A DNA stretch of 64,000 bases. Origin: an uncultured Lachnospiraceae bacterium (lineage in GTDB: Bacteria > Bacillota > Clostridia > Christensenellales > UBA1242). Under the pieces are notes generated by a model. It made no database searches and was not told where the DNA came from. It was given only the letters and a program-made list of their open reading frames with translations. Both the position numbers and the translations under genes were made by a program. The stretch is taken from NCBI GenBank assembly GCA_964521165.1, contig CAZFRA010000003.1, forward strand, positions 10,076-74,075, in the 5' to 3' direction. Shown here piece by piece: positions 41,182-56,799 of the stretch (the first letter of the stretch is position 1; each line of letters opens with the position of its first letter).

Positions 41182-42333
41182 ATGAATAAAATAAATGTTG
41201 TTCAATACGGTTGTGGAAAAATGAGCAAATACACAATGCGTTATGTCTTCGAAAAAGGGGCAAAAATTGTTGGTGCTTTTGATTGCGATGAAGCAAAAAT
41301 TGGGCTCGACATCGGAAAGATTATTGAAGATGGCAAGGAATACAAAGTTAAAATTCAAGACAGTAAAAATTTCGAGAAATATTTGCAGTCGCACAATGTG
41401 GACATTGTCATCGTTACAACAATGAGTTATATCAAGGATATGTATGAACCACTTCTCATTTGCGCTAAATGCGGCGTGAATGCAATCACAACGGCAGAAG
41501 AAGCGTTCTATCCACAAAATTCCAGTCCAACAACTTTCGAAATGATTGACAAATTGGCACAAGAAAACGGCTGTACCATTTGTGGAAGCGGATATCAAGA
41601 TGTTTTTTGGGGCAATCTTATCAGCGTGCTTGCTGGTGCCACACACAAAATAACCAAAATCAAAGGTTCAAGTTCGTATAATGTTGAAGATTACGGCATT
41701 GCGCTTGCCCAAGCACACGGTGCTGGGCTTTCTCTTAAAGATTTTGAAAAAGAAGTTGCCGCTGCCGACGAAATAAGCGATGCGGACCGCAAAAAACTCA
41801 TCAAAAAAGGCGAATTTGTGCCAAGTTATATGTGGAATGTGAACGGCTGGTTGTGCAGTAAACTTGGTTTAACTGTCACACGTCAAACGCAAAAGTGTGT
41901 GCCACATATTGCCAAGCAAGAACTTTTCAGTTCCACACTCAATATGAAAATTCCGAAGGGCTACGCAACCGGTATGAGCGCAGTTGTCACGACCGAAACC
42001 AAAGAAGGTGTGATTATTGAAAGTGAATGCATCGGTAAGGTGTATGACAAAACCGAATTCGATAAAAACGACTGGACAATTGAAGGTGAACCAAACACAA
42101 GAGTTATCATCGAAAGACCGGCCACTGTGGAACTTACTTGCGCATCAGTTGTCAACCGCATTTCAGAAGTTTTAATGGCACCACCGGGATATATCACAAC
42201 CGACCTTATGCCAGAAAATCTCTATAAACAACACAGTTTGGATAAATATCTTTTCGATTTAAACGAATATTATGACGCAATGGCGGGCGATGACTGTTGC
42301 TGTCACCACGACGGTTGCCATCATCACGAATAA
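41182..42333 (+). CDS. NAD(P)-binding oxidoreductase, DapB-N / 2,4-diaminopentanoate (amine) dehydrogenase-like, with a Cys/His-rich C-terminal tail
   Basis: Start chosen at MNKINVVQYGCGKMSKY..GAKIVGAFD (Rossmann G.G..S motif) with an AGGAGG SD at 41171-41176. The track's upstream extension from 41041 lacks an SD and runs into the terminator. The tail is DDCCCHHDGCHHHE. Confidence 0.5.
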   Translation: MNKINVVQYGCGKMSKYTMRYVFEKGAKIVGAFDCDEAKIGLDIGKIIEDGKEYKVKIQDSKNFEKYLQSHNVDIVIVTTMSYIKDMYEPLLICAKCGVNAITTAEEAFYPQNSSPTTFEMIDKLAQENGCTICGSGYQDVFWGNLISVLAGATHKITKIKGSSSYNVEDYGIALAQAHGAGLSLKDFEKEVAAADEISDADRKKLIKKGEFVPSYMWNVNGWLCSKLGLTVTRQTQKCVPHIAKQELFSSTLNMKIPKGYATGMSAVVTTETKEGVIIESECIGKVYDKTEFDKNDWTIEGEPNTRVIIERPATVELTCASVVNRISEVLMAPPGYITTDLMPENLYKQHSLDKYLFDLNEYYDAMAGDDCCCHHDGCHHHE

Positions 42334-42348
42334 TTTAAAAGGAGTAAA

Positions 42349-42981
42349 ATGAAAAAAGGGTTTTTAGTTACTTTTGAAGGTGGCGAAGGGTGCGGAAAAA
42401 GTACTCAAATTCAACTTTTTTCCAAATATTTGGAAGAACAAAAATTCGATTTTCTTCTTTCGCGCGAACCGGGCGGAAGTGAACTTGGACAAAAAATTCG
42501 TGAAATACTACTCCACTCCAATCAAAACATAAGTGCAAAGACTGAGTTTTTGCTTTTGTCGAGCGCACGGTCTGCTCACATTGAAGAACTTATTCAGCCG
42601 GCGCTTAAAAAAGGAAAATTGGTTGTTTTAGATAGATATTTCGACTCGTCTTTTGCCTACCAGGGTTACGCTGGAAATCTAGACTTAACGGATATGCGAA
42701 CCGTGAACAATTTTGTTGTTGGCGACTGTATACCAGACTTGACAATTCTTCTCGATATTCCAACCAAAGAAGGTTTTAGTCGAAAAAACAAAGATGAAAA
42801 ACTTAAAAATTTGGATAGAATTGAGCAGAAAGGAGAGTCTTTTCACGAAAAAGTGCGAAAAGGTTATTTGCAACTTGCCAAGGAAAACTCAAACCGCATA
42901 AAAATTGTCGATGCAACAAAAAGCGTGGAAGATGTGCATAAAGAAATCGTAAAAATTTTCCAAAATGCTTACCAAAATTGA
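42349..42981 (+). CDS. tmk: Thymidylate (dTMP) kinase
   Basis: FLVTFEGGEGCGKSTQ (P-loop), LSREPGGSELGQKIREILL and LDRYFDSSFAYQG are all canonical Tmk motifs. Confidence 0.9.
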   Translation: MKKGFLVTFEGGEGCGKSTQIQLFSKYLEEQKFDFLLSREPGGSELGQKIREILLHSNQNISAKTEFLLLSSARSAHIEELIQPALKKGKLVVLDRYFDSSFAYQGYAGNLDLTDMRTVNNFVVGDCIPDLTILLDIPTKEGFSRKNKDEKLKNLDRIEQKGESFHEKVRKGYLQLAKENSNRIKIVDATKSVEDVHKEIVKIFQNAYQN

Positions 42982-43032
42982 TAATTTTTCAATAAAATAA
43001 ACAAAATCTAAAAATAAACTAAAAATTCATAA

Positions 43033-43068
43033 CAAAAAAAAGATAGTGAAACTTCACTATCTTTTTTC
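43033..43068. terminator. Bidirectional terminator between convergent tmk and the yhhN-like gene
   Basis: A perfect inverted repeat, AGATAGTGAA (43041-43050) with TTCACTATCT (43053-43062), flanked by A8 upstream and T6 downstream. Confidence 0.8.
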
Positions 43069-43121
43069 CTTTAACATACTTTCAATTATCTCAAAACTTC
43101 TGTTGCTATTTTTTCTTGGAA

Positions 43122-43823
43122 TTAAATTAATCCAAAAAGGATGAAAAGAGCAATCGTAACTTGTGCGAGATAGTAGAGAATGTGGTTGAAGTATATCAGT
43201 GATTTTTGTGTTTTTCCACCAAAGTATTGCATTGACAAGATAAGGTCGGATGTAAGGAAGAGAAGCATACCGCCAGCAAAAATCCAAACCATTGGACTTA
43301 AAATTGCCACACAAATTGAATAGAAAAGCATAAATGACAAGATAAGGCTGTATGCGACAACAGCAAACTTAACCTTTCCAAAATCCAAACCCATCTTTTT
43401 TGACGAAATCAAAACGATGAGGGTGAGCACAATTGCCAGCACTATCGAAACAGGAATGGCCCACGCAAGACTTATGATGCTGATGGAAATGTTGGTCAAG
43501 AGAAGTGCGACAAAGTAGAAGATATGCCCAATTGCGAACGACAATGTTCCAGTCAAGAACAAAGCGTCGTTTTTTGAAGGATACATTACCTTCAAGTCAA
43601 GCAAGATATCCCCGACAAGCCCACAAAACAAGCCAACCAAAATAAGAATTCCGACAATGCTATCAAAACCGATCATTGCGAGCGCCAAGATTGCCGAAAA
43701 AACAAAGCAAAGCGAAGCAAGAATTTTAAGTGTTAGGGAATAGAAGGTTGCTTTATTGCTACGAAGAACGCAAAAAGCCACCGTTATTACCATACACAAA
43801 ATTGCAAAAATAATACTTCCCAT
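43122..43823 (-). CDS. YhhN-family membrane protein (lysoplasmalogenase-like, TMEM86 homologue family)
   Basis: A 233-aa protein of about 8 TM helices. It carries GLFCGLVGDILLD early and LLFLTSDLILSMQYF late, the two conserved acidic motifs of YhhN proteins. AGGAGG SD present. Confidence 0.65.
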   Translation of the reverse strand: MGSIIFAILCMVITVAFCVLRSNKATFYSLTLKILASLCFVFSAILALAMIGFDSIVGILILVGLFCGLVGDILLDLKVMYPSKNDALFLTGTLSFAIGHIFYFVALLLTNISISIISLAWAIPVSIVLAIVLTLIVLISSKKMGLDFGKVKFAVVAYSLILSFMLFYSICVAILSPMVWIFAGGMLLFLTSDLILSMQYFGGKTQKSLIYFNHILYYLAQVTIALFILFGLI

Positions 43824-43952
43824 AATTTCCTCCTTGGATTTATTTTAACATATATTACAGAAAAAACTTAACATTTTACTTAAATTTTTTATTTTTTTTT
43901 ATTTTTTATGTTGTTTTTTCCTTAATTTAAAAATTTTTAACCTTAAAAATCG

Positions 43953-45137
43953 TTAAGAATTAAAAAAGTTTAAAATGTCACCATAAACTTCGTCTTTGTT
44001 AATTTCGTTCAAAAGTTCGTGACGGCAATCTGGATAAATCTTCACACGGCTGTCAATGTTGTGGCTGAGATAGAGTTTGTTGAGCTTGATAACTTGTTTG
44101 CCATTTGAACCAACTAGGTCATTTTTGCCGGCGATTAAGAAAATTTTCTTTTTGCCAATTTTGTTTATTCCGGAATTGACTTTTTTCATATTTATCAACA
44201 TACTCTTATAGAAACCAAACGGGAAATTACCACCACAAAACTCATCTGCTTGGTATGCTTTGAAGACTTCTTCATCGCGAGATAGCCAGTTGCCGTTTTT
44301 GAATTTTTTACCGTAACCTTTTACACACATTGCTTCCACAATTCCACCCTTTGAAGAGTCATTTTTGAAGAAAGAAAGAATTTTCACAAATCTTCCACCC
44401 AATTTCATAATGGCACTTGAACCATTTGCTGTGCCACAAAGCACACACTTTTCCACAATATCAGTGTTTTGAATTATTGCCTGACTTACCATCGAGCCAT
44501 AGGAGTGTCCAAAAAGATAGATTGGAAGGTTATAGGCGTCTTTCATCTTTTCAAGTATTCTAATTTCATCCTGCACGGTTTCTTGGAAGATATCTTTCTC
44601 GCCAAAACCAAATTTTTGGTCAACTGCGGAATGCCCGTGTCCGCGCAAATCGTTCACTAAAACAAAATATCCGTTGTCGTTCAAAAATCGTGCAAAAGCG
44701 TCGTATCTTCCGGCGTGCTCCATCATTCCGTGAACAATAAGCACAGCACCTTTTGGATTTGCAATTTTGTCGTATACATAAGAATAGAGTTTAAGGTTTG
44801 TGCTGCCTTCAATATTAATTATGTCATACGACTCTTCTGGCTGCTTTGGTGCTTTTTTATTTTTTGTTTTCTTACCCGTTGATTTTTTTGCGCTCGCGGT
44901 CTTTTTTATTCCTGTCGAATTTTTGGTAGTGCTTTTTGTCTTTTCTGCAATCACCGTTTCTTTTTCGGCGACCTTTGCAGCACCAATCTTCTTCGCGCTT
45001 GTCTTCGTGCCAGATGACTTCTTCGTGGTCATATCCGCTTTTTCGCTCACTTCTTTTTTAGTACTTTTCGTTGTTGCTTTCTCCGTGGCGCTTTCCGACT
45101 TTTTTGTGACTTTCTTTTTTGTTTCTTCTTCTGCCAT
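43953..45137 (-). CDS. Alpha/beta hydrolase (lysophospholipase / monoacylglycerol lipase-like) with a Lys/Thr/Ser-rich N-terminal extension
   Basis: The catalytic core has VLIVHGMMEHAGRYDAFARFL..LRGHGHS, the nucleophile elbow GHSYGS, and a late CRHEL motif supplying the His. The first 100 or so residues are low-complexity KK/T/S/A. Its start lies 1 nt after the glpK stop. Confidence 0.75.
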   Translation of the reverse strand: MAEEETKKKVTKKSESATEKATTKSTKKEVSEKADMTTKKSSGTKTSAKKIGAAKVAEKETVIAEKTKSTTKNSTGIKKTASAKKSTGKKTKNKKAPKQPEESYDIINIEGSTNLKLYSYVYDKIANPKGAVLIVHGMMEHAGRYDAFARFLNDNGYFVLVNDLRGHGHSAVDQKFGFGEKDIFQETVQDEIRILEKMKDAYNLPIYLFGHSYGSMVSQAIIQNTDIVEKCVLCGTANGSSAIMKLGGRFVKILSFFKNDSSKGGIVEAMCVKGYGKKFKNGNWLSRDEEVFKAYQADEFCGGNFPFGFYKSMLINMKKVNSGINKIGKKKIFLIAGKNDLVGSNGKQVIKLNKLYLSHNIDSRVKIYPDCRHELLNEINKDEVYGDILNFFNS

Positions 45138-45138
45138 T

Positions 45139-46602
45139 TTAACCCCCTATAATTTTTTTTATTGCTTTTTGCCAGCCTTCATAAAGTCTTTCTCTTTCCT
45201 TTTCGGACATATTTGGACAAAAAACTTCAGTTGAACTGGTTAATTTTTTGATTTCATCTTTGGTGATAAGTTTGAGCGAGAACATTGCAATATAAATGGT
45301 GCCCATCACGGTTGCTTCGACATTTTTGCTTTTAACGACATCGTGATTGAGCATATTTGACATAAACTGCAACAGAAAATCGTTATTGCTTCCGCCACCG
45401 TCGACAGAGACAAGTGAAAATTTCAAACCCGATTTGCGCATCTCATCGAAAATTGCTTTGGAGTTGTAAGCCATACTTTCCAACATTGCGCGAACAATAT
45501 GTGCTTTGGTGGTAGCATAAGTTATCCCACTAATTTCTGCTCTCGCATCGCTGTTCCAATATGGTGCGCCAATCCCAGTGAACGCTGGCACGAAATAAAC
45601 CCCTTCATTATCCGGTAAACTTTCCGCCATATCACTCGTTTTTCTCACATCGTCATACATATTAAAGTTGTGTTTCAAAAAGTTAAGTCCGCTGCACGCG
45701 CTGTAAATGCTTCCTTCAATAGCGTATTCGGTTGAGTTGCCAAGAGTGGAAGCCACGGTGAGCAAAAGTTTGTCTGGGCATTTATCCGGATTTTTGCCCG
45801 CATTCGTTAGAATAAAACCACCGGTGCCGAGAGTTATCTTCGCTGTGCCATAGGCGATTGCACCTTGTCCAATCATACTTGATTGCTGGTCGCCAATAAT
45901 TGAACAAAGTGGCGCGTTAAAAAATTTTTTCACATTTCCAAACTTGGCATCGCAAGGTAAAATTTTTGGCAGTGACTCGCGTGGTATTTTGAAAAATTCC
46001 AACAATTCGTCGTCATAATCTAGTGTTTTTATGTTCATAAGCATTGTGCGCGAAGCGTTTGTGGTGTCGGTGACAAAATTTCCGGTGAGTGCGGTGGCGA
46101 TGTAAGCATCGATTGTGCCAAAACATAAATCTCCACTTTTTGCCAACTTTTTTGCTTCCTTGACATTATCTAAAATCCACTTCATCTTTGATGCGCTAAA
46201 ATATGGGTCGGGAATTAGTCCCGTTTTTTCACGAATCATCGTTTTTATTTTAAGTGGAAGAGATTTGATATAATTCGAAGTTCTTCGACACTGCCAGCAA
46301 ATTGCGTTATAGATTGGCTTTAAAGTTTTTCTATTCCACGCCACCACTGTTTCGCGTTGGTTGGTTATGCCGATACCCAAAAGTTCTTCCTTTTGGACCT
46401 TGTTTCGAGTAAGAACGGTTTTACAAGAAGAAATCACAATATTCAAAATCTCGCTGGCGTCCTGTTCGACATATCCACTTTGTGGATAAAACTGCCTAAA
46501 AGTTTTCGACTGTTTGTCGACAAGTCGGGCTTCGTCAATATCATACAAAACTGCGCGCGCACTTGTTGTGCCTTCGTCAATACCTATGATAAACCTTCTC
46601 AT
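45139..46602 (-). CDS. glpK: Glycerol kinase (FGGY family)
   Basis: FIIGIDEGTTSARAVLYD......QFYPQSGYVEQDASEI...GITNQRETVVAWN... is the characteristic GlpK N-terminal pattern. The protein is 487 aa. Confidence 0.85.
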   Translation of the reverse strand: MRRFIIGIDEGTTSARAVLYDIDEARLVDKQSKTFRQFYPQSGYVEQDASEILNIVISSCKTVLTRNKVQKEELLGIGITNQRETVVAWNRKTLKPIYNAICWQCRRTSNYIKSLPLKIKTMIREKTGLIPDPYFSASKMKWILDNVKEAKKLAKSGDLCFGTIDAYIATALTGNFVTDTTNASRTMLMNIKTLDYDDELLEFFKIPRESLPKILPCDAKFGNVKKFFNAPLCSIIGDQQSSMIGQGAIAYGTAKITLGTGGFILTNAGKNPDKCPDKLLLTVASTLGNSTEYAIEGSIYSACSGLNFLKHNFNMYDDVRKTSDMAESLPDNEGVYFVPAFTGIGAPYWNSDARAEISGITYATTKAHIVRAMLESMAYNSKAIFDEMRKSGLKFSLVSVDGGGSNNDFLLQFMSNMLNHDVVKSKNVEATVMGTIYIAMFSLKLITKDEIKKLTSSTEVFCPNMSEKERERLYEGWQKAIKKIIGG

Positions 46603-46678
46603 ATTTTTTCCTTTTCATTGTTATTTTAACATAAAATGAAAAAAATAAAAAAACATTTTGCCATCTTTTTTGTTTTAT

Positions 46679-46707
46679 TTGACAAACTTTTTTATAAAAG
46701 ATAAAAT
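46679..46707 (+). promoter_or_regulatory. Candidate promoter of the glpA-like operon (divergent from glpK)
   Basis: TTGACA at 46679-46684, a 17-nt spacer, and TAAAAT at 46702-46707. Confidence 0.5.
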
Positions 46708-46741
46708 ATTCATTGAAAAAACGAAAAGAAAAGGGGATAAA

Positions 46742-48154
46742 ATGGAAAAATTTTATGATGTCGTGGTCATTGGCGGTGGAATTGTTGGCGCGTCAATATT
46801 CAACAAACTTGTGCGTGTTGGTAAAAAGGTGGCAATTATTGACAAAGCGAGTGATGTGGCAACTGGCGCAAGCAAGGCAAACAGCGGACTTGTGCACGCA
46901 GGATACGACCCAGAACCGAACACACTCAAAGCAAAACTTAATGTGCGGGGGGCATACCTTTTTCCATTAATTTGTCGTCGTTTATCCGTTCCTTTCAAAA
47001 GATGTGGCGCGCTTGTTGTTGGCGACGATAAAGACAAAGTACAAGCTCTTTATGAACGCGGGCAAAAGAATGGTGTCAAAGAATTGTATGTATTAAATCG
47101 AGAAGAAATGGCGACGCTTGTGCCGAACTTGAAAGAACATTTGACTTGCGCACTATATGCCAAAACAGCGGGTATTGTCAGTCCATACCTTTTCACAATT
47201 GCACTTTGTGAAGAAGGAATAATCAATGGCGGTGAACTTTTCTTGGAAGCAGACTTAAAGTCTTGCGAAAAAGAAGGAGATTTTTTTGTTTTAACCACAC
47301 AAAAGGGTACATTCAAAACGAAGGCAATTGTCAACAGTGCCGGATTTGGATATAACGAAGTGGCAAAGATTTTGAAAACGGAAGAATATCCGTTTGAATA
47401 TCGCCGTGGAGAATATTTTGTTTTTTCAAAAGAATCCACCACCAAAGTGCCTTGCACAATTTTTCCATTGCCAACCGAGAAAGGTAAGGGTGTTTTGCTG
47501 ACGCCAACAGTGGACGGAAATTATCTTGTTGGACCGACAAGCGAAAAGAGTGAATACGAAACCGTAACAACCGAAAAAGGTTTGCAAGAAATAAGAGAAA
47601 AATCGGGGCACATTCTAAAAGATGTTGACTTCAAAAATACTATACGCGTCTTTTCTGGAGTGCGAACCATATCTGGTAATGATTTTGTTATTGAAAAAAG
47701 CAAAACAGAAGGAATTATTAATATCGCCGGCATTTGTTCGCCGGGGCTTTCCAGCGCACCGGCAATAGCCGAAATGGTTTTGGAATTATTGGAAATAAAA
47801 TTAAAAGAGAAAAGTCGACTTCGAAAGATAACGCCATACAAGATGTTCAAAGACTATTCCGCCTATCTTCAAGAAGAGTTGTTGGCACAAAACAAAGACT
47901 ATGGCGAAATTGTTTGTAAGTGCGAAAAAATAACCAAAGGCGATGTTGTTAACGCATTGAAAAGACCGATTGATATTCATTCGGTCGATGCAATAAAGCG
48001 AAGAACAAACGCGGGAATGGGAATATGCCAAAGCGGATTTTGTTTCACCAAAGTTGTGGAAATTATCGCGCAGGTAAAAAAGATGAAATACGAAGACGTC
48101 TTGAAAGAAAACCGTGGAAGCGAAGTTGCTGTTGGCAACATAAGAGAGGTGTAA
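46742..48154 (+). CDS. FAD-dependent oxidoreductase, GlpA-like glycerol-3-phosphate dehydrogenase family with a C-terminal BFD-like [2Fe-2S] domain
   Basis: Start at MEKFYDVVVIGGGIVGASI (dinucleotide-binding GxGxxG) with an AAGGGG SD; the track's 46658 start is an SD-less extension. The C terminus is CKCEKITKGDVVNAL...GMGICQSGFC, a BFD-like Cys pattern. It lies divergent from glpK. Confidence 0.7.
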   Translation: MEKFYDVVVIGGGIVGASIFNKLVRVGKKVAIIDKASDVATGASKANSGLVHAGYDPEPNTLKAKLNVRGAYLFPLICRRLSVPFKRCGALVVGDDKDKVQALYERGQKNGVKELYVLNREEMATLVPNLKEHLTCALYAKTAGIVSPYLFTIALCEEGIINGGELFLEADLKSCEKEGDFFVLTTQKGTFKTKAIVNSAGFGYNEVAKILKTEEYPFEYRRGEYFVFSKESTTKVPCTIFPLPTEKGKGVLLTPTVDGNYLVGPTSEKSEYETVTTEKGLQEIREKSGHILKDVDFKNTIRVFSGVRTISGNDFVIEKSKTEGIINIAGICSPGLSSAPAIAEMVLELLEIKLKEKSRLRKITPYKMFKDYSAYLQEELLAQNKDYGEIVCKCEKITKGDVVNALKRPIDIHSVDAIKRRTNAGMGICQSGFCFTKVVEIIAQVKKMKYEDVLKENRGSEVAVGNIREV

Positions 48155-48155
48155 T

Positions 48156-49388
48156 ATGGAAACTGATGTTTTGGTTATTGGAGGCGGTCCAGCCGGAATG
48201 AGCAGTGCACTTTCTGCTTCTCAAAACGGGAGTAGAGTTATCCTTATTGAACGCGACAAAATTTTAGGTGGAATTTTAAACCAGTGCATACACAACGGCT
48301 TTGGACTTCACTATTTTGGCGAAGAACTGACAGGTCCAGAGTTCGCGCATAGATTTCGCAAAATGGTGGAAAAAGATAAAAATATCACCGTTTTGACCAA
48401 CACGCTTGTCACAGACATTGGTAAAAAAAGAGTTGTTGTTATGGGCAAAGATGGCACACAAACCATAACTTGTAAAGCGCTTATCGTTGCAATGGGATGC
48501 CGCGAGCGCACAGCGGGAAATATTATGCTAAACGGCACGCGCCCTTCGGGAGTTTTAACAGCAGGCACAGTGCAAAAAATGGTGAATATCGACGGCAAAA
48601 TGGTTGGCAAAAATGTTGTTATCTTAGGAAGCGGTGATATAGGGCTTATTATGGCAAGGCGCTTAACTCTTGAAGGTGCCAAAGTGCACGCCGTTTTGGA
48701 AATAAATTCCACCAGCAGTGGTTTAAGAAGAAATATTATGCAATGCCTTGAAGATTTCAACATTCCGCTTTTATATAACACGACAATTTTTGAAGTTGTC
48801 GGAACTGATAGGGTGGAAGGCATTTATTATGGTCAAGTGGACGAACATTTTAACAAAATTGAAAACACAAAAAAATTCTTGGAATGCGACACGGTTGTTT
48901 TGTCGGTTGGTTTGATTCCAGAGATGCAAATGGTCAAAGGTGTGGCGATAAATCCAAAAACAAATGGCGCGTTTGTGAATGAATATTATCAAACGGAAAA
49001 AGAATGGCTTTTTTCTTGCGGAAATATTTTGCACGTGCACGACTTGGTGGACAATGTAGCTTTGGAAGGAAAACAAGTCGGACTTTTTGCCAGTTTATAT
49101 GCGCAAAGAAAGTTGAAATCGGGGAATTTAATCAAAATTTCTCACAGCGCCGACTTTTCCTATGTTTTGCCTTACACTCTTTTTGAAGGCGACGGTGAAG
49201 TGGAAGTTAAATTCCGCTTAAAGAAAAAAATCGTGAAAAGTTGGATTATAGCGATCTGTAAAGGTGAAATTTTGGCGAAAAAATATATCCTTGCTGGCGT
49301 TCCGGGCGAGATGATGACCTTTAAATTTTCCAAAGCGGGCGCCAAAGATGAAATTATTTTCGAGGTGAGAGAAAATGGAAAAGTATAA
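48156..49388 (+). CDS. FAD/NAD(P)-binding pyridine nucleotide-disulfide oxidoreductase family protein (partner subunit of the GlpA-like enzyme)
   Basis: DVLVIGGGPAGMSSAL...VILIERD..LGG is followed by a second dinucleotide fold, VVILGSGDIGLIMARRL. It starts 2 nt after the upstream gene and overlaps the DUF1667 gene. Confidence 0.7.
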   Translation: METDVLVIGGGPAGMSSALSASQNGSRVILIERDKILGGILNQCIHNGFGLHYFGEELTGPEFAHRFRKMVEKDKNITVLTNTLVTDIGKKRVVVMGKDGTQTITCKALIVAMGCRERTAGNIMLNGTRPSGVLTAGTVQKMVNIDGKMVGKNVVILGSGDIGLIMARRLTLEGAKVHAVLEINSTSSGLRRNIMQCLEDFNIPLLYNTTIFEVVGTDRVEGIYYGQVDEHFNKIENTKKFLECDTVVLSVGLIPEMQMVKGVAINPKTNGAFVNEYYQTEKEWLFSCGNILHVHDLVDNVALEGKQVGLFASLYAQRKLKSGNLIKISHSADFSYVLPYTLFEGDGEVEVKFRLKKKIVKSWIIAICKGEILAKKYILAGVPGEMMTFKFSKAGAKDEIIFEVRENGKV

Positions 49389-49716
49389 TTTAACGTGCAT
49401 AATGTGCCCGCTTGGATGCAATTTGATAGCGACCAAAGACGGCGACAACATCACTGTCACTGGCAACAACTGTCAACGTGGCGTTGTTTTTGCCAAAGAA
49501 GAACTAACTTGCCCAATGCGTATTGTGACAAGTTCAGTGAAAACGGCAAAAGGTGTGAAAAGTTGTAAAACAACAAAAGGTGTGCCAAAGGCAAAGATTT
49601 TTGATGTTATGAAAGAGATTGAAAAATTGCGCTTAAAAGATGCGAAATATGGTCAAGTTGTCATTAAAAATGTGCTTGATACCGGCGCCGATGTCGTCAT
49701 CACAGCAAATGAATAA
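49375..49716 (+). CDS. DUF1667 domain-containing protein
   Basis: A 113-aa protein with the CIMCPLGCNL...TGNNCQRG Cys pattern typical of DUF1667. Its position as third gene after the two FAD oxidoreductases is the conserved one. Confidence 0.7.
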   Translation: MEKYNLTCIMCPLGCNLIATKDGDNITVTGNNCQRGVVFAKEELTCPMRIVTSSVKTAKGVKSCKTTKGVPKAKIFDVMKEIEKLRLKDAKYGQVVIKNVLDTGADVVITANE

Positions 49717-49720
49717 ACAA

Positions 49721-49749
49721 AAACCGCGGGTTTTGCCTGTGGATTTTTA
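49721..49749 (+). terminator. Probable terminator after the DUF1667 gene
   Basis: CCGCGGG (49724-49730) pairs with CCTGTGG (49736-49742) with two G:U pairs, then A-TTTTT. Confidence 0.5.
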
Positions 49750-49831
49750 TTATTGCATATTATGAAAAGATGAATAAATTTAAGAAATCCTTTCAAAACT
49801 TTGTTCTTAAACATCAACATTTTAGTGGGAC

Positions 49832-50638
49832 TCAATAAGAATCGTCGCGCAAGACTTTCATAATAATTGTGAAACTTTTATCTTCTTTTCTTTTTTTAAT
49901 TTTATCATAAATATAGAACGGCAGGATGCTGACAAGCGCGATAACGGCGACCAAAAGAGCATAGTCGAGAAGATAGGAATATTGCCAATTTAAAAAAGCG
50001 AACAGGTCGAACGGCAAACCATTATCCATAAGATAAAGAAAGTTAGCGTCTTCCACCAAAAGATTGCCAATCATCGACCAGCAGGCGATAAGGAAAATTC
50101 CCAAGAACCCTTGCCAAAAATCTTTAACCCGCACCTTGAAATATCCACTTGCGATGCAGGCGATAACAACGGTTGGCATAATGAAATGAAGAAGCAGACT
50201 TTCATAGTGCAAGAAAGAAAGCGTGGAGAGATAATAATAATCGCCGAAAATAAAGGTCAAAATTCCGCCAAAAAAGGTGACAACCAGCACGGCAAGAAAA
50301 CCCTTCTTGATTTTAAGAAGAAAGAAGAGCGGAAAAACAAAACTCATCAAATGGCAAAGGTGCCACGGCAAAACTTCCACAAAGGTTTGTTTTGCGCTGA
50401 AATACAGAAGTGCCATTCGAAAAATGCGGAAAAATATCATCACGAAACACAAAACGGTTGTGAGTTTTAACGCAAAATTAGGATATTTTTTAAATAAGAA
50501 AAACGCAGCAACAAGCCACAAAGCGAGTCCAACCATCAAACAGATATGAAGTGGACACCAAAGTCCAGGCCCATCGCCCATAGCATAGTCATTTTCAATT
50601 AGCCAATCATAAAAAGTAAAACTGGCAGTAATCATCAT
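49832..50638 (-). CDS. YwaF/TMEM164-family integral membrane protein, paralog 1
   Basis: A polytopic protein with the family-typical LPWHLCHL motif and a later conserved His region (LLLHFIMP). I prefer the ATG at 50638 to the track's TTG at 50644. Confidence 0.55.
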   Translation of the reverse strand: MMITASFTFYDWLIENDYAMGDGPGLWCPLHICLMVGLALWLVAAFFLFKKYPNFALKLTTVLCFVMIFFRIFRMALLYFSAKQTFVEVLPWHLCHLMSFVFPLFFLLKIKKGFLAVLVVTFFGGILTFIFGDYYYLSTLSFLHYESLLLHFIMPTVVIACIASGYFKVRVKDFWQGFLGIFLIACWSMIGNLLVEDANFLYLMDNGLPFDLFAFLNWQYSYLLDYALLVAVIALVSILPFYIYDKIKKRKEDKSFTIIMKVLRDDSY

Positions 50639-50872
50639 AAACAAAAATTCCCTTTTTATATTATAGAAAAAAATTATGCTATTTGTAAAGAAAAAAGGAA
50701 AAATTTTCCGTTTTTATGTTGAATTTTTAAAAACACAAAAAAAGTTTTCTTGACAAAAATTATAAAAACAAGCAAAACATTTTTATTTTTAGAAAAATAA
50801 TGCTATAATCAATAAATAAGAAAACCTATCTCGATGGAATAATTTGCAGTTTAGCCAAATTTTGAGGATAAA

Positions 50873-51451
50873 ATGATAATCAAAGATTTAAAAAAAGAGT
50901 TAAAGAAAAAAGAAATTGATTATGACGAAGTGGCCACAATCAATGTCAAGGCGGAGAATGAAAACGCGATTTTTTCGGAATATAACTACGATGCCAACGA
51001 GATTCTAAATCCAGACCTTGAAAATTTTCTTATTGAAAAAGCAAGAACAGTGCCAAACAAATCAAGATTACGAGTAAAAATTTTCACTAACGATGATGTC
51101 GTCGAAAGTGAAGTGGAAAGAGCATACAAAAACAAATTTAGTAAAGAATTTGAAGAGTGTGAGCGAAGTTTGAAGCGAAATATGCTTTTTGCGCTTGCAA
51201 TGTTTATTATTGGTGTGCTTTTCATTGGTTTTTTGATTTTGGAAATGCATATTTTTGAAAATTATATTCTCTCCATAATTTTGGAAGTTGCTGTCTGGGT
51301 TTTTATTTGGGAAGCAGTGGATGCTTTCTTTTTGGAGCGGTCGACAATAAAACGACGCCGTTATCAAATGGCGAGGCTTTATTATGCCGAACTTGAAATC
51401 GTTACGCTTAATTTTGACAAAATAGAAGAAAAATTGACAAAAAACAACTAA
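50873..51451 (+). CDS. Hypothetical membrane protein (soluble N-terminal half, two C-terminal TM helices)
   Basis: A 192-aa ORF with a GAGGA SD. The TM segments are MLFALAMFIIGVLFIGFLIL and ILSIILEVAVWVFIWEAV. I recognise no family. Confidence 0.5.
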   Translation: MIIKDLKKELKKKEIDYDEVATINVKAENENAIFSEYNYDANEILNPDLENFLIEKARTVPNKSRLRVKIFTNDDVVESEVERAYKNKFSKEFEECERSLKRNMLFALAMFIIGVLFIGFLILEMHIFENYILSIILEVAVWVFIWEAVDAFFLERSTIKRRRYQMARLYYAELEIVTLNFDKIEEKLTKNN

Positions 51452-51513
51452 TTTCTTGCATATAAATATTGTATATTAAAAAAAATCATTTTTGAAAATA
51501 AGGAGAATTGAAT

Positions 51514-52344
51514 ATGAAATATCAAATAATTGTTGATAGTTGCTCCGATTTAAATGAGGACTATCTTAACGGAACAGGAATTGGTTTTAAAATCGTTCCT
51601 TTAACAATCAATGTGGGCGACAGCGAATATGTCGATATTGCTGGTTGCGATGTGGATGGAATGCTCAACAAATTAAAAACACCAAAAATTAAAAGTTCCA
51701 GCGCTTGTCCAGCGCCAGAAACATTTAAAAAAGAATTCGATAATGCAGACTATACTTTTGTTGTGACATTAACTTCCAAACTTTCGGGGTGCTATAACAG
51801 TGCCCTGCTTGCCAAAAATGAGCACGAGAATTCGTCGCATATTCACATTATTGACTCAAAAGCAGTTTCAGGAACAGAAGTCTTGATTGTTAACAAACTT
51901 GTTGAATTCATCAATGCTGACTTGGATTTTGAAGTTATTGTGGATGAAATCGAAAAATTTAAGGAAAGTTGCACACTTTTCTTTGTTCTTCAAAAATTTG
52001 ACAACCTTGTCAATAATGGACGTATGAGCAGAATTGCCGGGCTTATTGCCAGCACAATTTCTCTCAAACCAATTTGTAAGGCTGTTGATGGTGAGATTAA
52101 AATAATTAAGAAAATTATTGGCTCAAAACAACTCTTCTCAAGACTTTCTTTAATGATTAAGGAGGTTTTGAACGGCGATAAAACGCGCCGAATTATCATT
52201 TCTGAATGCAAAGCGCAAGGAGAAGCAGAAGAGTTGAAGCGCGAAATTGAGAAAAATTGTGGTAACACCAACATCGAAATTTTACCTATGAAGGCGCTCA
52301 CAAGTTACTATGCTCTTGAAAAAGGAGTGATTGTTTGCTTTTAA
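51514..52344 (+). CDS. DegV-family fatty-acid-binding protein (FakB-like)
   Basis: MKYQIIVDSCSDLNEDYL...KIVPLTINVGDSEYVD is the typical DegV N terminus. ATG 51514 has an AGGAGA SD 7 nt upstream; the track's TTG at 51508 is too close to the SD. Confidence 0.8.
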   Translation: MKYQIIVDSCSDLNEDYLNGTGIGFKIVPLTINVGDSEYVDIAGCDVDGMLNKLKTPKIKSSSACPAPETFKKEFDNADYTFVVTLTSKLSGCYNSALLAKNEHENSSHIHIIDSKAVSGTEVLIVNKLVEFINADLDFEVIVDEIEKFKESCTLFFVLQKFDNLVNNGRMSRIAGLIASTISLKPICKAVDGEIKIIKKIIGSKQLFSRLSLMIKEVLNGDKTRRIIISECKAQGEAEELKREIEKNCGNTNIEILPMKALTSYYALEKGVIVCF

Positions 52345-52421
52345 TTAAAAATTTTTAAAAAATGAGTGTTATGTTTGACTTTTTCTTGAGAAATGATTAG
52401 AATATTCTCAAGGAGGGAAAA

Positions 52422-52922
52422 ATGAAGGAAAACACAAAAAACATCATTTATACGATTGCTTCAATGGTCTTTGCCGGTCTTATTTTGGTGTTTATGGCAG
52501 TGCCAAATGTTTCATACGGTTTCAGCGCTGGTTCAAGTAGTGTTAGAACGGAATATTCCGGTTTTGATTACTACGAAAGCGGGACTGACTTCTTCAAGTC
52601 GATGCTTATTATCACTGGAATTGTGGCTTGCGTTTTGACTGTTGTTGCACTTTTGAAAACACTTATTGATTGTTTTTCGAAAAAGAAAAAGTTTTCCGGA
52701 CTTTTGACATTCATTCTCAAAATTGCCGGATTGACTTTGTTTGTGACGGCACTTCTCTATATGATTTCTGTGATTGTGATGTGTAGTGATAACAGTATCA
52801 CAAACGACTATTCAAGCATTGGATTAAGTCCCGTTTATTGGTCAATTGTTTTGATTGCAATTTTTGGTCTTATCAGTGCAGTCTCAGCATTCCTAACAAA
52901 CAAAGCTAAGAAAAAGAAATAA
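52422..52922 (+). CDS. Hypothetical membrane protein (4 predicted TM helices)
   Basis: A 166-aa ORF with an AGGAGGG SD, four hydrophobic segments and a basic KAKKKK end. I recognise no family. Confidence 0.5.
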   Translation: MKENTKNIIYTIASMVFAGLILVFMAVPNVSYGFSAGSSSVRTEYSGFDYYESGTDFFKSMLIITGIVACVLTVVALLKTLIDCFSKKKKFSGLLTFILKIAGLTLFVTALLYMISVIVMCSDNSITNDYSSIGLSPVYWSIVLIAIFGLISAVSAFLTNKAKKKK

Positions 52923-53024
52923 AAAACGAAAAATCATACAAAAGTATGATTTTTTGTTGCTAAAATAATGTAAATAATTGCATTTTGTTTGTGTTTTTTT
53001 ATTCAAATTTGGTAAAATATATCT

Positions 53025-53786
53025 ATGTTTGTATGGACGGAAGCAGAAGGGACAGTTTTACCGATAGCATTAATTATGACTTTGTTCATCTCAATTCTTA
53101 TCGCTTATTTATTACGCAAAAAAAGCGAATTGATAAGACGAATACCTTTGATGATAATTACTGCTATTACTCTAACACTCGAACTTGTAAAACAAATTTT
53201 ATATATTATGAGTGGTTATGACCTATGGGCAATACCACTTCATTTTTGCAGCCTATTTCTCTACTTCTATCCGCTTGCAAGTTTCTTTAAAGGCAAAGTC
53301 GGTGAGTTTGGAAAAACAATGTGTTTTATCGCTGGCTCCTTCTTTTTGCTGATGTTTTACATAAATCCAAGGTCTATTGTAGGCTCTTCTTGTGAAGACA
53401 TATTTAAGACTTTTAACACTTTCCATACATTTACATACCATCATCTAATTTTTCTTTTCTATTTCACTATGCTATTCTCGAAACTGTATAAACCATCGAA
53501 AGACGATTTTCTGTATGCTTTCATCGGTATTGGTGCTTATGTTTTGGTTGCTATTCCACTCGCACACATTCTTAACACAAACTTCTGCAACCTTTTAACA
53601 AGTAACATTCCTTTTATGGAAACTTTCCGACAGAATTATGGACAGGTTGTCTACACCATAGCGATGATACTTTTTGGAATTGGTGGTGGAGAAGTGATTG
53701 TGTTGATACCGAATTTGATATTCAAAAAAGTCAAAAAAGAAGATAATTTTAATAAAATTATAAAAATTTTAAGAACCGAGGTATAA
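53025..53786 (+). CDS. YwaF/TMEM164-family integral membrane protein, paralog 2
   Basis: IPLHFCSLFLYFYPL matches the PLHLC signature, followed by FHTFTYHHLIF. The protein is 253 aa and polytopic. It has no SD, and an extended -10 lies 6 nt upstream of the ATG. Confidence 0.6.
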   Translation: MFVWTEAEGTVLPIALIMTLFISILIAYLLRKKSELIRRIPLMIITAITLTLELVKQILYIMSGYDLWAIPLHFCSLFLYFYPLASFFKGKVGEFGKTMCFIAGSFFLLMFYINPRSIVGSSCEDIFKTFNTFHTFTYHHLIFLFYFTMLFSKLYKPSKDDFLYAFIGIGAYVLVAIPLAHILNTNFCNLLTSNIPFMETFRQNYGQVVYTIAMILFGIGGGEVIVLIPNLIFKKVKKEDNFNKIIKILRTEV

Positions 53787-53787
53787 T

Positions 53788-54666
53788 ATGAATTTGTTTG
53801 AACAATTTTTGGCAAGTTTAGACGGCAAAATAACCAAACCAACGTTGTGGGGTTTGTTTCATATAACAGCTTTGGTGATAACTATCATCTTAACCGTGCT
53901 TATTTGTACTTTTGCCATAAAAAACAAACGCGAAGGAAAAAGTAATGATAAACTTGTGCGGGTTTGTGTTTTGATTTATGCTATTGTGACTATAATTCTT
54001 GAAATATACAAGCAGTTGAATTTCTCATTTAACAGCACAACAGGAGAGTGGAGTTATCAATGGTATGCCTTTCCATTCCAATTCTGTTCCACACCAATGT
54101 ATGTCGCTCTCATTGCGGGATGCTTGAAAAAGTGTGAATTTCAAAAATATTTGTATGCCTACATCGGCACTTTTGTCCTTTTTGCCGGACTGTGCGTGAT
54201 GTTCTATCCAAACGGTGTTTTTGTTACCACAATTGGAATTAACATTCAAACGATGGTTTGCCACGGCGGAATGATTGTTATTGGAGTTTTGGTTTTGGTA
54301 AGTGGCGTTATAGATATGAAATGGACGACCATTTTGAAGGCGATTGCAGTTTTTGCTGTGTTTGTTGTGATTGCTCTTATTATGAACATAATTTTCAACA
54401 GCACCGGCAACACCGCCAACTTCAATATGTTCTACATCAGTCCTTACCGCACTTGTACATTACCACTTTTACAAGACATTCAAGAAGAAGTGCCGTATAT
54501 CATCTTCTTGCTGATTTATATCATTGGTTTTTCACTCGCGGCATTCATTATCTTTGCTGTGGCAAAAGGTTTGGATGATGCTATCAACAAAAGAGTCAAG
54601 AGAAATTCTTTTGAAGATGACAATTCAATGAATATCATTTTCCGTAATTTAAAAAATTTGCAATAA
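53788..54666 (+). CDS. YwaF/TMEM164-family integral membrane protein, paralog 3 (divergent)
   Basis: AFPFQFCSTPMYVALI occupies the PLHLC-motif position, followed by MVCHGGMIVIG. The protein is 292 aa and polytopic. It starts 2 nt after paralog 2. Confidence 0.5.
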   Translation: MNLFEQFLASLDGKITKPTLWGLFHITALVITIILTVLICTFAIKNKREGKSNDKLVRVCVLIYAIVTIILEIYKQLNFSFNSTTGEWSYQWYAFPFQFCSTPMYVALIAGCLKKCEFQKYLYAYIGTFVLFAGLCVMFYPNGVFVTTIGINIQTMVCHGGMIVIGVLVLVSGVIDMKWTTILKAIAVFAVFVVIALIMNIIFNSTGNTANFNMFYISPYRTCTLPLLQDIQEEVPYIIFLLIYIIGFSLAAFIIFAVAKGLDDAINKRVKRNSFEDDNSMNIIFRNLKNLQ

Positions 54667-54721
54667 GAATTAAAAAAATTGCAGTTGTCAGTTGATTGTT
54701 TTTCAAATGAATAATAAAATA

Positions 54722-54760
54722 AAAAATAGTGGCAATATTTTTTTACCACTATTTTATTTT
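54722..54760. terminator. Bidirectional terminator between convergent genes
   Basis: ATAGTGG (54726-54732) pairs with CCACTAT (54746-54752), flanked by an A-run and a T-run. Confidence 0.55.
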
Positions 54761-54792
54761 GTCAATTTTAAAGATAGCAAACCTTGCTGTTT

Positions 54793-55041
54793 TTAATTTT
54801 GTTTTTGAAATTTTCCGTCTTTTTTGTGGACAATAACTTTCATATTTTGACTTTCGCAAAGTTCCTTAACCCTTTTTATTGCTTCATCTTTTGTTAGAAA
54901 AGAAGAGATAACTCGTTTTGCGCCATCTTTTTTTATAAGCCAAACACGGTTTTCGTGGTCATAAACCACGCGATAAACCGATTTTTTTTCTTTTTCTTCT
55001 TTCTCTTTCTTTTTTTCGTTTTTCTTCTTTCGACCAAACAT
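54793..55041 (-). CDS. DUF2188 domain-containing protein
   Basis: YRVVYDHENRVWLIKKDGAKRVISSFLTKDEAIKRVKELCESQNMKVIVHKKDGKFQ fits the DUF2188 pattern (W.vk.eg..r....f.tk.eAi..a..la......i.ih..dG.i). The N terminus is KKEK-rich. Confidence 0.7.
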   Translation of the reverse strand: MFGRKKKNEKKKEKEEKEKKSVYRVVYDHENRVWLIKKDGAKRVISSFLTKDEAIKRVKELCESQNMKVIVHKKDGKFQKQN

Positions 55042-55098
55042 ATTCTTTCTCCTTTGCTATATCTCTATTATACCTTAAATACAACAAAAAAGCAAGGA

Positions 55099-55482
55099 TT
55101 AATTTTCGTAAAGTGCAAGATAGATTTCTTTTGCTGTGTTTATCGCCTTGAAGAGATTTTTAAGCGTAATGTTTTGTACCAGAGATTCGTTTGTGCCAAG
55201 GTAGGAGCCAAGATGTGCACAAATTTGTGCAAGTGATTTAATTAGTTCCATATTGTTTGGATAGTCATAATCGTTCGTTTCTTGCACATTCAACCCAAAT
55301 TCTTCTTCCATTTCTTTGAAGGTGTCCGTGAGCAGTGCCTTCATCAAGATTTGCCCTTTTTTAACATATTTTTGTGACTCGGCAAGTTCGCCGTCACCAA
55401 CTTTTATTTCTGCATCAACAAAGCAAGCGCAAGCGTTCGCTGTGGTTTCCAAAAGTTCGGAAAAAAGTTCTTGTTTTGCCAT
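55099..55482 (-). CDS. Hypothetical protein (127 aa, acidic, predicted all-helical)
   Basis: An ORF with an AAGGAG SD, co-directional with the DUF2188 gene. I recognise no family. Confidence 0.5.
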   Translation of the reverse strand: MAKQELFSELLETTANACACFVDAEIKVGDGELAESQKYVKKGQILMKALLTDTFKEMEEEFGLNVQETNDYDYPNNMELIKSLAQICAHLGSYLGTNESLVQNITLKNLFKAINTAKEIYLALYEN

Positions 55483-55558
55483 ATTTTTTACTCCTTTTTA
55501 TAATTATACAACAATTTTTGCAAAAAGTTAATCATTTTGAAGGAGAGTAAAAAGTTAA

Positions 55559-55587
55559 TTGACTTTAATGATGAAATATTTTAAAAT
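55559..55587 (+). promoter_or_regulatory. Promoter placed for leaderless transcription of dinB
   Basis: TTGACT at 55559-55564, a 17-nt spacer, and TAAAAT at 55582-55587. The dinB ATG begins at 55594, only 6 nt after the -10, and no SD is present. Confidence 0.5.
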
Positions 55588-55593
55588 AATGTT

Positions 55594-56799
55594 ATGAGAG
55601 CGATTCTTCATTGCGATTTAAACAATTTCTACGCGAGTTGCGAAGTGCTTGTCAATCCCGAGTTGAAGGGATTGCCTGTTGCTGTTGGCGGGCGAGAAGA
55701 AGACCGACACGGCGTGGTTGTGGCAGCAAACTATGAAGCCAAAAAGTTTGGTGTGCGTTGCGGTGTCACGACTTATCAAGCCAAAAAACTCTGCCCGAAC
55801 ATCGTGATTTGCCAACCAAAGTTTGAAATATACAACAAATTTTCACGCGATGTGCGTAAGATTTATGAAGAATATTCCGACCGCGTCGAAGTTTTTTCGA
55901 TTGACGAGTGTTTTATCGATGTCACGCACAGTAAAATTTTTGGCACACCAGAAGAAATTGCAAACAAAATCCGTGAAAGAGTGAAAAAAGAAGTTGGACT
56001 TACCATTTCCGTCGGTGTCAGTTTCAACAAGACTTTTGCCAAAATCGGAAGCGATTTTAAAAAGCCGGATGCCACAACCGTAATAACCGAAGAAAATTTC
56101 AAAGAAAAGGTTTGGGTTTTGCCGATTGCGGATATGTTTGGTGTTGGAAGAAAAATGCGAGAGAAACTTCAAAGGTTTAGTATAAACACCATTGGCGATT
56201 TGGCGAATTTTGATAAGAAATTTTTAGTCGAAGAGTTTGGAAAAGTTGGTGAAGAATTGCACAAAAAAGCGAATGGACTTGATAACGAAGAAGTGCAACT
56301 TGCAAACATCCAAAACGCACCAAAAAGCGTTGGCAACAGCACCACATTCTATAAAGACCTGTTCGACAAAAAAGAAATCGAACTTGCCTTTTTTGTTATT
56401 GCCGAAAGTGTGGTTGAGCGAATGATAAAAAAGAATTTGAAAACCTGTCGAACGGTTTCAATTGTCGTGCGCGATAGCGACTTAAAATTCTACCAAAAAC
56501 AGTGCAAAATTGAGCCTTGCCGAAACAGTGATATAATTGCAAAAACAGCGATAAAACTTTTTTTCGACAATTTTTCTTTCAAAAATGGTGTTCGACTTTT
56601 GGGAATTTCTGTCAGCGACTTTGATGAAGGTGAACAACTTTGCCTATTTTCACAAGACGAAAAACATCTCGACGAAGTGATGTTAAAAATTCGCGACAAA
56701 TATGGACGCGACAGCATCCGTCGTGGCAACTCGTTGAGTAATAAAAAAATTGCATCTGCTTTGGATAGGGGACAATTAGATAAAAATTCGGAAGAGTAA
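55594..56799 (+). CDS. dinB: DNA polymerase IV (Y-family translesion polymerase)
   Basis: ILHCDLNNFYASCEVL..P.LKGLPVAVGG...GVVVAANYEAKKFGVR....SIDECFIDVT are canonical Y-family motifs. An in-frame TAA at 55582-55584 fixes ATG 55594 as the first possible start. Confidence 0.9.
   Translation: MRAILHCDLNNFYASCEVLVNPELKGLPVAVGGREEDRHGVVVAANYEAKKFGVRCGVTTYQAKKLCPNIVICQPKFEIYNKFSRDVRKIYEEYSDRVEVFSIDECFIDVTHSKIFGTPEEIANKIRERVKKEVGLTISVGVSFNKTFAKIGSDFKKPDATTVITEENFKEKVWVLPIADMFGVGRKMREKLQRFSINTIGDLANFDKKFLVEEFGKVGEELHKKANGLDNEEVQLANIQNAPKSVGNSTTFYKDLFDKKEIELAFFVIAESVVERMIKKNLKTCRTVSIVVRDSDLKFYQKQCKIEPCRNSDIIAKTAIKLFFDNFSFKNGVRLLGISVSDFDEGEQLCLFSQDEKHLDEVMLKIRDKYGRDSIRRGNSLSNKKIASALDRGQLDKNSEE

Follow-up and report, generated by a model that had tools for sequence, protein, structure and literature searches.

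A 64,000-nt stretch of DNA from an uncultured Lachnospiraceae bacterium (assembly GCA_964521165.1, contig CAZFRA010000003.1; C3:10076-74075, hereafter the window) carries, at positions 43122-54666, an island of twelve genes that brings together glycerol kinase (GlpK), a predicted glycerol-3-phosphate (G3P) oxidoreductase of the FngABC type, an alpha/beta hydrolase, a YhhN protein, a DegV/FakB protein and three TMEM164/YwaF membrane proteins. We cautiously favour the interpretation that this island serves a lineage-specific salvage of outside lipids by members of known enzyme families. The gene content of the island, the family membership and catalytic residues of its products, the auxotrophy of the 1.04-Mb genome (37 contigs, completeness score 100%) and the synteny across the lineage were all observed, and it is on these that the interpretation is built. 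Throughout, C labels contigs of the window's own genome, L loci, P metagenome contigs (to which L059-L062 also belong) and G genomes, with G000-G018 making up the genus set.

Gene content of the island and lipid metabolism of the genome

Gene calls were based on the open reading frame (ORF) listing together with Pfam and NCBIfam profile scans of positions 43122-54666. The initial annotation, made from the sequence alone, had described twelve consecutive genes in 11.5 kb, at least nine of them pointing to lipid or glycerol metabolism. All twelve were recovered at the same coordinates, and ten fall into such families, the ten family matches passing the curated Pfam cut-offs; these include the YhhN, TMEM164/YwaF, DegV and DUF1667 assignments. 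The description of the right-hand part of the island as DegV followed by three TMEM164-like genes was correct for the families, but one TMEM164 gene lies on the minus strand and precedes DegV, and two orphan genes are interspersed. According to a consensus scan, the island is divided into four separate transcription units with promoter-like and terminator-like sites of their own, and an Rfam scan of positions 42000-56000 found no RNA element.

In line with the recycling of fatty acids proposed in the initial annotation, type II fatty acid synthesis (FASII) appears to be missing from this genome. FabF/FabB was found neither in this genome nor in any of 25 genus genomes, as against 14/14 controls, and neither FabH nor FabD was found in the genome with E. 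coli queries; fatty acids must therefore be imported. FakA, PlsX and PlsY are all present, as are acyl carrier protein (ACP), a PlsC-like gene and CdsA (E. coli queries). GpsA, present in 14/14 controls, is absent here and in 16/19 genus genomes, leaving no standard route from dihydroxyacetone phosphate (DHAP) to G3P. The genome encodes a single glycerophosphodiester phosphodiesterase (GDPD), an enzyme detected in 12/13 genus genomes. Since E. coli queries found neither GlpF nor GlpT in the genome, the cell probably produces its glycerol internally. Finally, the HGD-D domain, which we take to be expected in the anaerobic plasmalogen synthase (C. perfringens PlsA/PlsR), is absent in 19/19 genus genomes. 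The organism itself probably makes no plasmalogens, and any plasmalogen would, given this absence, have to come from outside.

Enzyme families of the island

The left-hand minus-strand operon begins with glpK (45139-46602, 487 aa; NF000756, 536 bits, cut-off 498), the sole copy in the genome, whose product shares 40% identity with E. coli GlpK. As initially annotated, a gap of 1 nt separates it from the hydrolase gene (glpK stop at 45139, hydrolase start at 45137), and the YhhN gene lies downstream, 129 nt further on. The hydrolase is translationally coupled to GlpK both here and in relatives; in one of these, L063, the two genes overlap. The hydrolase itself (43953-45137, minus strand, 394 aa; Hydrolase_4, PF12146, 141.9 bits) has a GHSYG nucleophile elbow at residue 210. 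Its best solved relative is the bacterial alpha/beta hydrolase 5o7g (E 6.5e-23), to which it can be aligned through the regions of the catalytic Ser, Asp (GKNDLVG) and His (CRHEL), and weaker matches were obtained to human and M. tuberculosis monoglyceride lipases (MGLs; E 5e-11 to 1e-8); as a group, the nearest solved structures are esterases and MGLs. The score against the lysophospholipase L2 model (21.7 bits) is below the cut-off of 362. The enzyme is of the monoacylglycerol-lipase/lysophospholipase type, with either substrate a candidate only. Hydropathy revealed neither a transmembrane (TM) segment nor a signal peptide, and the enzyme would therefore act on lipids already inside the cell. 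The protein resembles the Hydrolase_4 lipases (human MGLL, M. tuberculosis Rv0183, E. coli PldB) in its alpha/beta fold, GHSYG motif and aligned Asp and His; it differs from them in its coupling to GlpK, in having 5o7g, which is no assigned MGL, as closest relative, and in an N-terminal low-complexity extension of ~100 residues, rich in Lys, Thr, Ser and Ala, ahead of the catalytic domain. A similar Lys/Thr/Ser-rich tail is found on an unrelated 195-aa protein that adjoins a TMEM164 gene (TM164a, see below) in L064.

Divergently from glpK, as had been noted at the outset, runs a plus-strand operon of three genes. Its first gene encodes a flavoprotein with DAO and Fer2_BFD domains (46742-48154; PF01266, 202 bits; PF04324, 45.9 bits), the second an FAD/NAD oxidoreductase (48156-49388, 410 aa; Pyr_redox_2, PF07992, 112.8 bits) and the third an iron-sulfur subunit (49375-49716, 113 aa; DUF1667, PF07892, 81.9 bits), with a 1-nt gap between the first two and a 14-nt overlap between the last two. 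The longest ORF of the first gene starts at TTG 46658; we place the likely start at ATG 46742, 139 nt from glpK, because a ribosome-binding site (AAAGGGG) is present and relatives align only from residue 28 of the longest ORF. Upstream of this start lies a promoter-like site (TTGACA-17-TAAAAT, 46679-46707, plus strand; a consensus match only, at 11/12 positions), and the operon is followed by a terminator-like hairpin (49724-49742, plus strand; likewise consensus only, with an 8-pair stem containing 5 GC pairs and a T-run).

The initial annotation had called these genes a GlpA-like trio. They are of the FngABC and not the GlpABC type, as judged by domains, gene order, a QCIH motif (residue 43 of the FngB-like protein) and the glpK neighbour, and the predicted activity is that of an electron-bifurcating G3P oxidoreductase. 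The Cys residues of the FngC-like protein are at positions 8, 11, 15 and 33. FngABC of Pyrococcus furiosus (PF2005-PF2007) was described in October 2026 as a ferredoxin- and NAD-dependent electron-bifurcating G3P oxidoreductase, with the Gln-Cys-Ile-His motif conserved among FngB homologues (PMC13689815). Both systems share DAO+BFD, Pyr_redox_2 (with QCIH) and DUF1667 proteins encoded in equal order, a glpK gene in the cluster and the lack of GlpF; for organisms without GlpF, the authors of that study propose lipid-derived glycerol as the feed of FngABC. Unlike in P. furiosus, glpK is divergently transcribed here, and the glycerophosphodiesterase of the P. furiosus cluster is replaced in the window by an MGL-type hydrolase coupled to glpK and a YhhN gene.

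The YhhN gene closes the glpK operon (43122-43823, minus strand, 233 aa; PF07947, 71.8 bits, cut-off 25.6), and the match spans profile positions 5-180 of 182. All of 11 lineage YhhN sequences have K33, G71, D72, H100, G185, S192, D193 and Y217. Order and similar spacing, rather than an alignment with the human sequence, match these residues to the putative active site of TMEM86A (K43, G81, D82, H104, G182, S189, D190, Y213); mutagenesis of TMEM86A and TMEM86B found most of these eight residues to be needed for activity (PMC11994398). No match to island YhhN was found among PDB sequences. A second YhhN, of 630 aa, is encoded outside the window (C2:119769-121661, plus strand) and is fused to a complete iron-containing alcohol dehydrogenase (ADH; YhhN domain PF07947, 84.9 bits; ADH part PF00465 and PF25137). 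The fusion is kept in 20 protein clusters, with identity of the YhhN part down to 43%. Such a fusion would be expected of a YhhN that sets free an aldehyde, which is what lysoplasmalogenases do, and it points to an aldehyde as the YhhN product, reduced on the spot. Island YhhN is thus a candidate lysoplasmalogenase, the plasmalogen step being deduced from family membership and from the fusion elsewhere in the genome. With the known YhhN/TMEM86 lysoplasmalogenases (rat and human TMEM86B, TMEM86A, Legionella LpYhhN and M. tuberculosis Rv1401; PMC3137066, PMC9052158, PMC11994398) it shares PF07947 and all eight residues; unlike them, it is encoded last in a glpK operon and has a paralog fused to an iron alcohol dehydrogenase.

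The DegV/FakB gene (51508-52344, plus strand, 278 aa) was identified with PF02645 (182.1 bits, cut-off 27) and TIGR00762 (199.2 bits, cut-off 99.7); against the FakB1 equivalog NF038249 its product scores 81.4 bits, below the cut-off of 350. In Staphylococcus and Streptococcus, FakA and FakB (DegV) activate exogenous fatty acids, together with PlsX, PlsY and PlsC. Here too, alongside island DegV, FakA (a 558-aa frame with a Dak2 domain at C6:32423), PlsX, PlsY and a PlsC-like gene are encoded elsewhere in the genome and FASII is absent, which would make the Fak route obligatory. Unlike in these model systems, the neighbours of DegV on both sides are TMEM164-like and orphan membrane proteins, which is not an arrangement known from the model organisms. 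Island DegV was rejected as the sole FakB of the genome: a tblastn search with it had found one gene, whereas a profile hidden Markov model search found four.

The three TMEM164/YwaF paralogs of the island all match PF14808 (cut-off 25): TM164a (49832-50644, minus strand, 270 aa; 59.3 bits), preceded by a promoter-like site at 50689-50660 on the minus strand (consensus scan), and, separated from each other by 1 nt, TM164b (53025-53786, plus strand, 253 aa; 65.1 bits) and TM164c (53788-54666, plus strand, 292 aa; 65.3 bits). Human TMEM164 is a coenzyme A (CoA)-independent acyltransferase whose products are C20:4 ether phospholipids and whose intermediate is an acyl-Cys123 (bioRxiv 10.1101/2022.07.06.498872; PMC12830759; PDB 9lw1); C123 and H181 are its nucleophile and His, and E106, H124 and Y177 its metal- and substrate-positioning residues. 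In TM164a, P93, C97 and H153 are invariant across 50 orthologs and paralogs. The Cys is kept in TM164b (PLHFC) and TM164c (PFQFC), as is the invariant His; among 44 diverse Clostridia members, the His never varies and conservation of the Cys is 90% or more. Cys97 and His153 are spaced by 56 residues, compared with 58 for human C123 and H181, and His98 directly follows Cys97, as H124 follows C123 in the human protein. When an AlphaFold2 (AF2) model of TM164a (mean predicted local distance difference test score, pLDDT, 91) was compared with 350,542 PDB chains using Foldseek, human TMEM164 (9lw1_A) ranked first, but weakly (prob 0.90, TM-score 0.44-0.46, E 0.26). In PDB sequences, neither TM164a alone nor any of three sequence profiles recovered the human TMEM164 chain. 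The likeness to the human enzyme comprises PF14808 in all three proteins, the PxxxC cysteine, a His ~56 residues downstream and the top, if weak, structural match of TM164a; the differences are an identity of ~16% and the presence of five paralogs in this genome of 1.04 Mb. Across Clostridia, PF14808 was found in 44/200 genomes, usually as one copy. The lineage paralogs (the three of the island and C3:1231-2085) also share a short charged C-terminal tail that other Clostridia members do not have, with the endings …IIMKVLRDDSY, …KIIKILRTEV, …NIIFRNLKNLQ and …MLKIIKTDLAS.

Two membrane proteins of the island remain orphans. Orphan-192 (50873-51451, plus strand, 192 aa) has no Pfam or NCBIfam match; 109 clusters of homologs were found, all without a name and restricted to the lineage. 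Its AF2 model (pLDDT 81) consists of a small alpha/beta N-domain and a long helical hairpin, for which Foldseek against the PDB returned no significant fold, only generic helical hairpins (best E 0.25). The motif WVFxWEAxD is invariant, and the gene adjoins TM164a in 15/20 ortholog loci. Orphan-166 (52422-52922, plus strand, 166 aa) has four hydrophobic segments and no family match above threshold, the sole hit being DUF2975 at 17.2 bits (cut-off 27). Its orthologs (39-57% identity) lie beside DegV or TM164a in 11/15 genome-contig loci and in L065.

Gene order within and beyond the lineage

To characterise the synteny of the island, we scanned one genome per species for TM164a, obtaining 15 metagenome-assembled genomes (MAGs), all from uncultured Clostridia and one of them Candidatus Caccovivens faecavium, and then searched these by tblastn with the island proteins. 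Within a single lineage, that of the Caccovivens-like Clostridia, synteny is kept in no fewer than 12 species-level MAGs, and the adjacency reported in the initial annotation is consequently not confined to this genome. On either side, the island is flanked by genes unrelated to lipids: a gene resembling diaminopimelate dehydrogenase (DAPDH) and tmk upstream, and a small orphan and dinB downstream. Four loci (L068, L069, L072, L075) have the complete order from the DAPDH-like gene and tmk through dinB, and another four (L066, L067, L071, L078) have the island order up to their contig ends. TM164a, orphan-192 and DegV are adjacent in 12/15 species-representative loci, and also in L065, which has no glp genes; the TM164b-TM164c pair is kept in L068, L069, L071, L075, L076 and L077. 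In L077, orphan-166, TM164b and TM164c have been relocated to the other side of TM164a. Among metagenome contigs, P0007 contains the glp block, and P0052 has the arrangement DegV-orphan-192 | TM164a-orphan-166 without the glp block. Because the glp and DegV/TMEM164 blocks occur apart among relatives, the island is composed of two separable modules, A (YhhN, hydrolase, glpK and fngABC) and B (TM164a, orphan-192, DegV, orphan-166, TM164b and TM164c).

Beyond the lineage, we examined 39 Clostridia TMEM164 loci, comparing three genes on each side (212 ORFs) with Pfam and running a local iterative search of ±10 kb. Patatin was found at five loci, and PLD-type (cardiolipin-synthase-like), PAP2, DegV and metallo-beta-lactamase proteins at two each; within ±10 kb there were two DegV genes and one related hydrolase. 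Orthologs of TM164a (50-53% identity) are also part of a different conserved operon (L059-L062; ~6150-11250 in L061), which encodes DUF2804, a PAP2 lipid phosphatase, an FAD enzyme (527 aa; DUF8436/HI0933-like domains), a metallo-beta-lactamase (187 aa), TMEM164 and small orphans (143 aa). Lipid enzymes therefore recur beside bacterial TMEM164 genes, with the YhhN/glp link found only in this lineage. We looked for a relation between orphan-192 and the 143-aa and 190-aa proteins encoded 3' of TMEM164 in the PAP2 operon; none was detectable.

Upstream of the island, the window also encodes a giant surface protein of 11,508 aa in one ORF (6470-40996, plus strand) with Listeria-Bacteroides (Flg_new) repeats. 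A homolog of 14,182 aa is found at the equivalent location in the related contig L063.

Candidate pathway, rival explanations and significance

The salvage pathway that we infer from these families, including all its substrates and products, the passing of chains by TMEM164 to FakB, the step on ether lipids and the origin of the lipids, would run as follows. Lipids from the diet, the host or partner bacteria would insert into the membrane, diet and partner bacteria being as possible a source as the host. The cytoplasmic hydrolase would free fatty acid and glycerol from monoacylglycerol, or a glycerophosphodiester from lysophospholipid, while YhhN would cleave lysoplasmalogen at its vinyl-ether bond to give a fatty aldehyde along with a glycerophosphodiester, from which the single GDPD could make G3P. 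Glycerol would be phosphorylated to G3P by GlpK, and the G3P could serve PlsY as acceptor or be oxidised by FngABC to DHAP for glycolysis. The TMEM164 paralogs, using their Cys/His pair, may take ester-linked acyl chains off membrane-inserted phospholipids through acyl-Cys intermediates and either pass them to lyso-lipids (remodelling) or release them. DegV/FakB would then bind the fatty acid, and FakA would turn it into acyl-phosphate for PlsY or, via PlsX, into acyl-ACP for PlsC. Orphan-192 and orphan-166 are probable membrane partners in these steps.

A bolder version of this pathway, which we think distinctly improbable, would cast bacterial TMEM164/YwaF proteins as the 'front end' that the Fak pathway has been lacking: Cys/His acyl-enzymes of the membrane that need neither CoA nor ATP to strip esterified chains from foreign phospholipids, plasmalogens included, such that the whole membrane is made from the lipids of others. 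Acceptors of the chains would be lyso-lipids or, for chains released as free acids, a dedicated FakB, and the orphans would act as partners; YhhN (and the ADH fusion), GDPD, GlpK and FngABC would complete the system in a bacterium that is FASII-less, GpsA-less and possibly partner-dependent.

Several observations weigh against the salvage interpretation. The structural match between TM164a and human TMEM164 is weak (E 0.26), and TM164a, the one paralog scanned, scores 38.5 bits against TIGR02206, below the cut-off of 75. The TM164a subfamily has Arg at a position that is a conserved Glu in most other bacterial members, TM164b and TM164c among them; its orthologs conserve Arg73 and Arg76 in the helix before Cys97 (window ~50417-50428, minus strand), and the site for metal or substrate may thereby be altered. 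Our literature search found no functional or biochemical study of a bacterial YwaF/TMEM164 protein. Across 200 Clostridia, TMEM164 presence showed no significant association with FabF loss (odds ratio 1.8, p = 0.10); an association of two or more copies with FabF loss (odds ratio 5.3, p = 0.015) was discarded, since it gave p = 0.20 without the window's own family. GlpK, for its part, was found in just 2/19 sampled genus genomes, though nearly all are without GpsA. With GDPD nearly universal, GlpK is ruled out as the general G3P source of the lineage, and in most of the genus G3P may come only from glycerophosphodiesters or uptake.

The remaining points of this kind concern gene order and bear on a rival explanation, namely that the genes are neighbours by descent only: glpK-fngABC catabolism, with a passenger esterase and YhhN, would lie beside an unrelated housekeeping FakB and membrane proteins of unrelated function in a frozen order. 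The two modules are indeed found apart, the DegV/TMEM164 block lacking glp genes in L076, L077 and L079 and the glp block with TM164a lacking the DegV block in L070 and L073, while G004 has hydrolase, TM164a and orphan-192 adjacent, without glpK, fng and YhhN. DegV orthologs of the island type adjoin dinB without TM164, orphan-192 or orphan-166 in five genus members; because these TM164a-less genomes keep DegV next to dinB, either a DegV-dinB locus is the older state, around which module B was put together, or these genomes have lost module B from it. In other families of the order, GlpK is never beside the hydrolase or YhhN (0/8), although glpK often adjoins fngABC without them (G003, G028 and G034). 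The neighbourhood of YwaF with YhhN, glp and DegV genes that the initial annotation had put forward holds within the lineage but not across Clostridia, where neither YhhN nor GlpK occurs within ±10 kb of the 39 TMEM164 loci (0/39) and DegV occurs at 2/39. The four transcription units with sites of their own fit this explanation as well, and conservation within one small-genome lineage may be inherited gene order and not the product of selection. Against mere descent stand the share of lipid or glycerol families among the genes, ten out of twelve, where the genome depends on fatty acid import, the translational coupling of glpK and hydrolase here and in relatives, and the TMEM164 genes of unrelated Clostridia that lie beside other lipid enzymes. 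Moreover, L065 and L077 are rearranged yet keep TM164a, orphan-192, DegV and orphan-166 together, which argues for selection on module B. Taken together, we regard an explanation by descent alone as unlikely.

It is also conceivable that the island serves self-maintenance or detoxification and not nutrition, with YhhN, the hydrolase and the TMEM164 paralogs clearing the cell's own membrane of inserted, damaging gut lysolipids and lysoplasmalogens and re-acylating lipids or reshuffling acyl chains to adjust membrane composition, and with GlpK and FngABC disposing of the backbone. YhhN of M. tuberculosis gives protection from toxic lysolipids of the host (PMC9052158), the human TMEM164 enzyme works as a remodelling transacylase and not in catabolism, a hydrolase without signal peptide or TM segment would act on lipids already in the cell, and a membrane built from whatever fatty acids are found would need remodelling. 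The coupling to GlpK and DegV/FakB, however, argues for re-use of the products beyond their mere removal, and recovery of fatty acid and G3P would be valuable to a cell with neither FASII nor GpsA. As detoxification and salvage are compatible, this alternative overlaps the salvage interpretation; taken by itself, we consider it very unlikely.

All the enzyme families of the island are already known, and characterised members exist for FngABC, FakB and YhhN. What is new is that one island combines these families, that TMEM164 has expanded five-fold in a 1-Mb genome without FASII, and that two orphans are conserved along with them; the YhhN-ADH fusion is new as well. The YhhN/glp association is specific to the lineage and should not be extended to YwaF proteins generally. 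The island is a good experimental entry point while being no surprise in principle: it offers a compact setting for TMEM164 function, with three of five paralogs beside FakB, co-conserved orphans and a glycerol/lysolipid module. If the salvage interpretation is true, FngABC would find a place in the recycling of lipid backbones, and tiny-genome gut bacteria would obtain both halves of their phospholipids, acyl chains and G3P, from the lipids of others.

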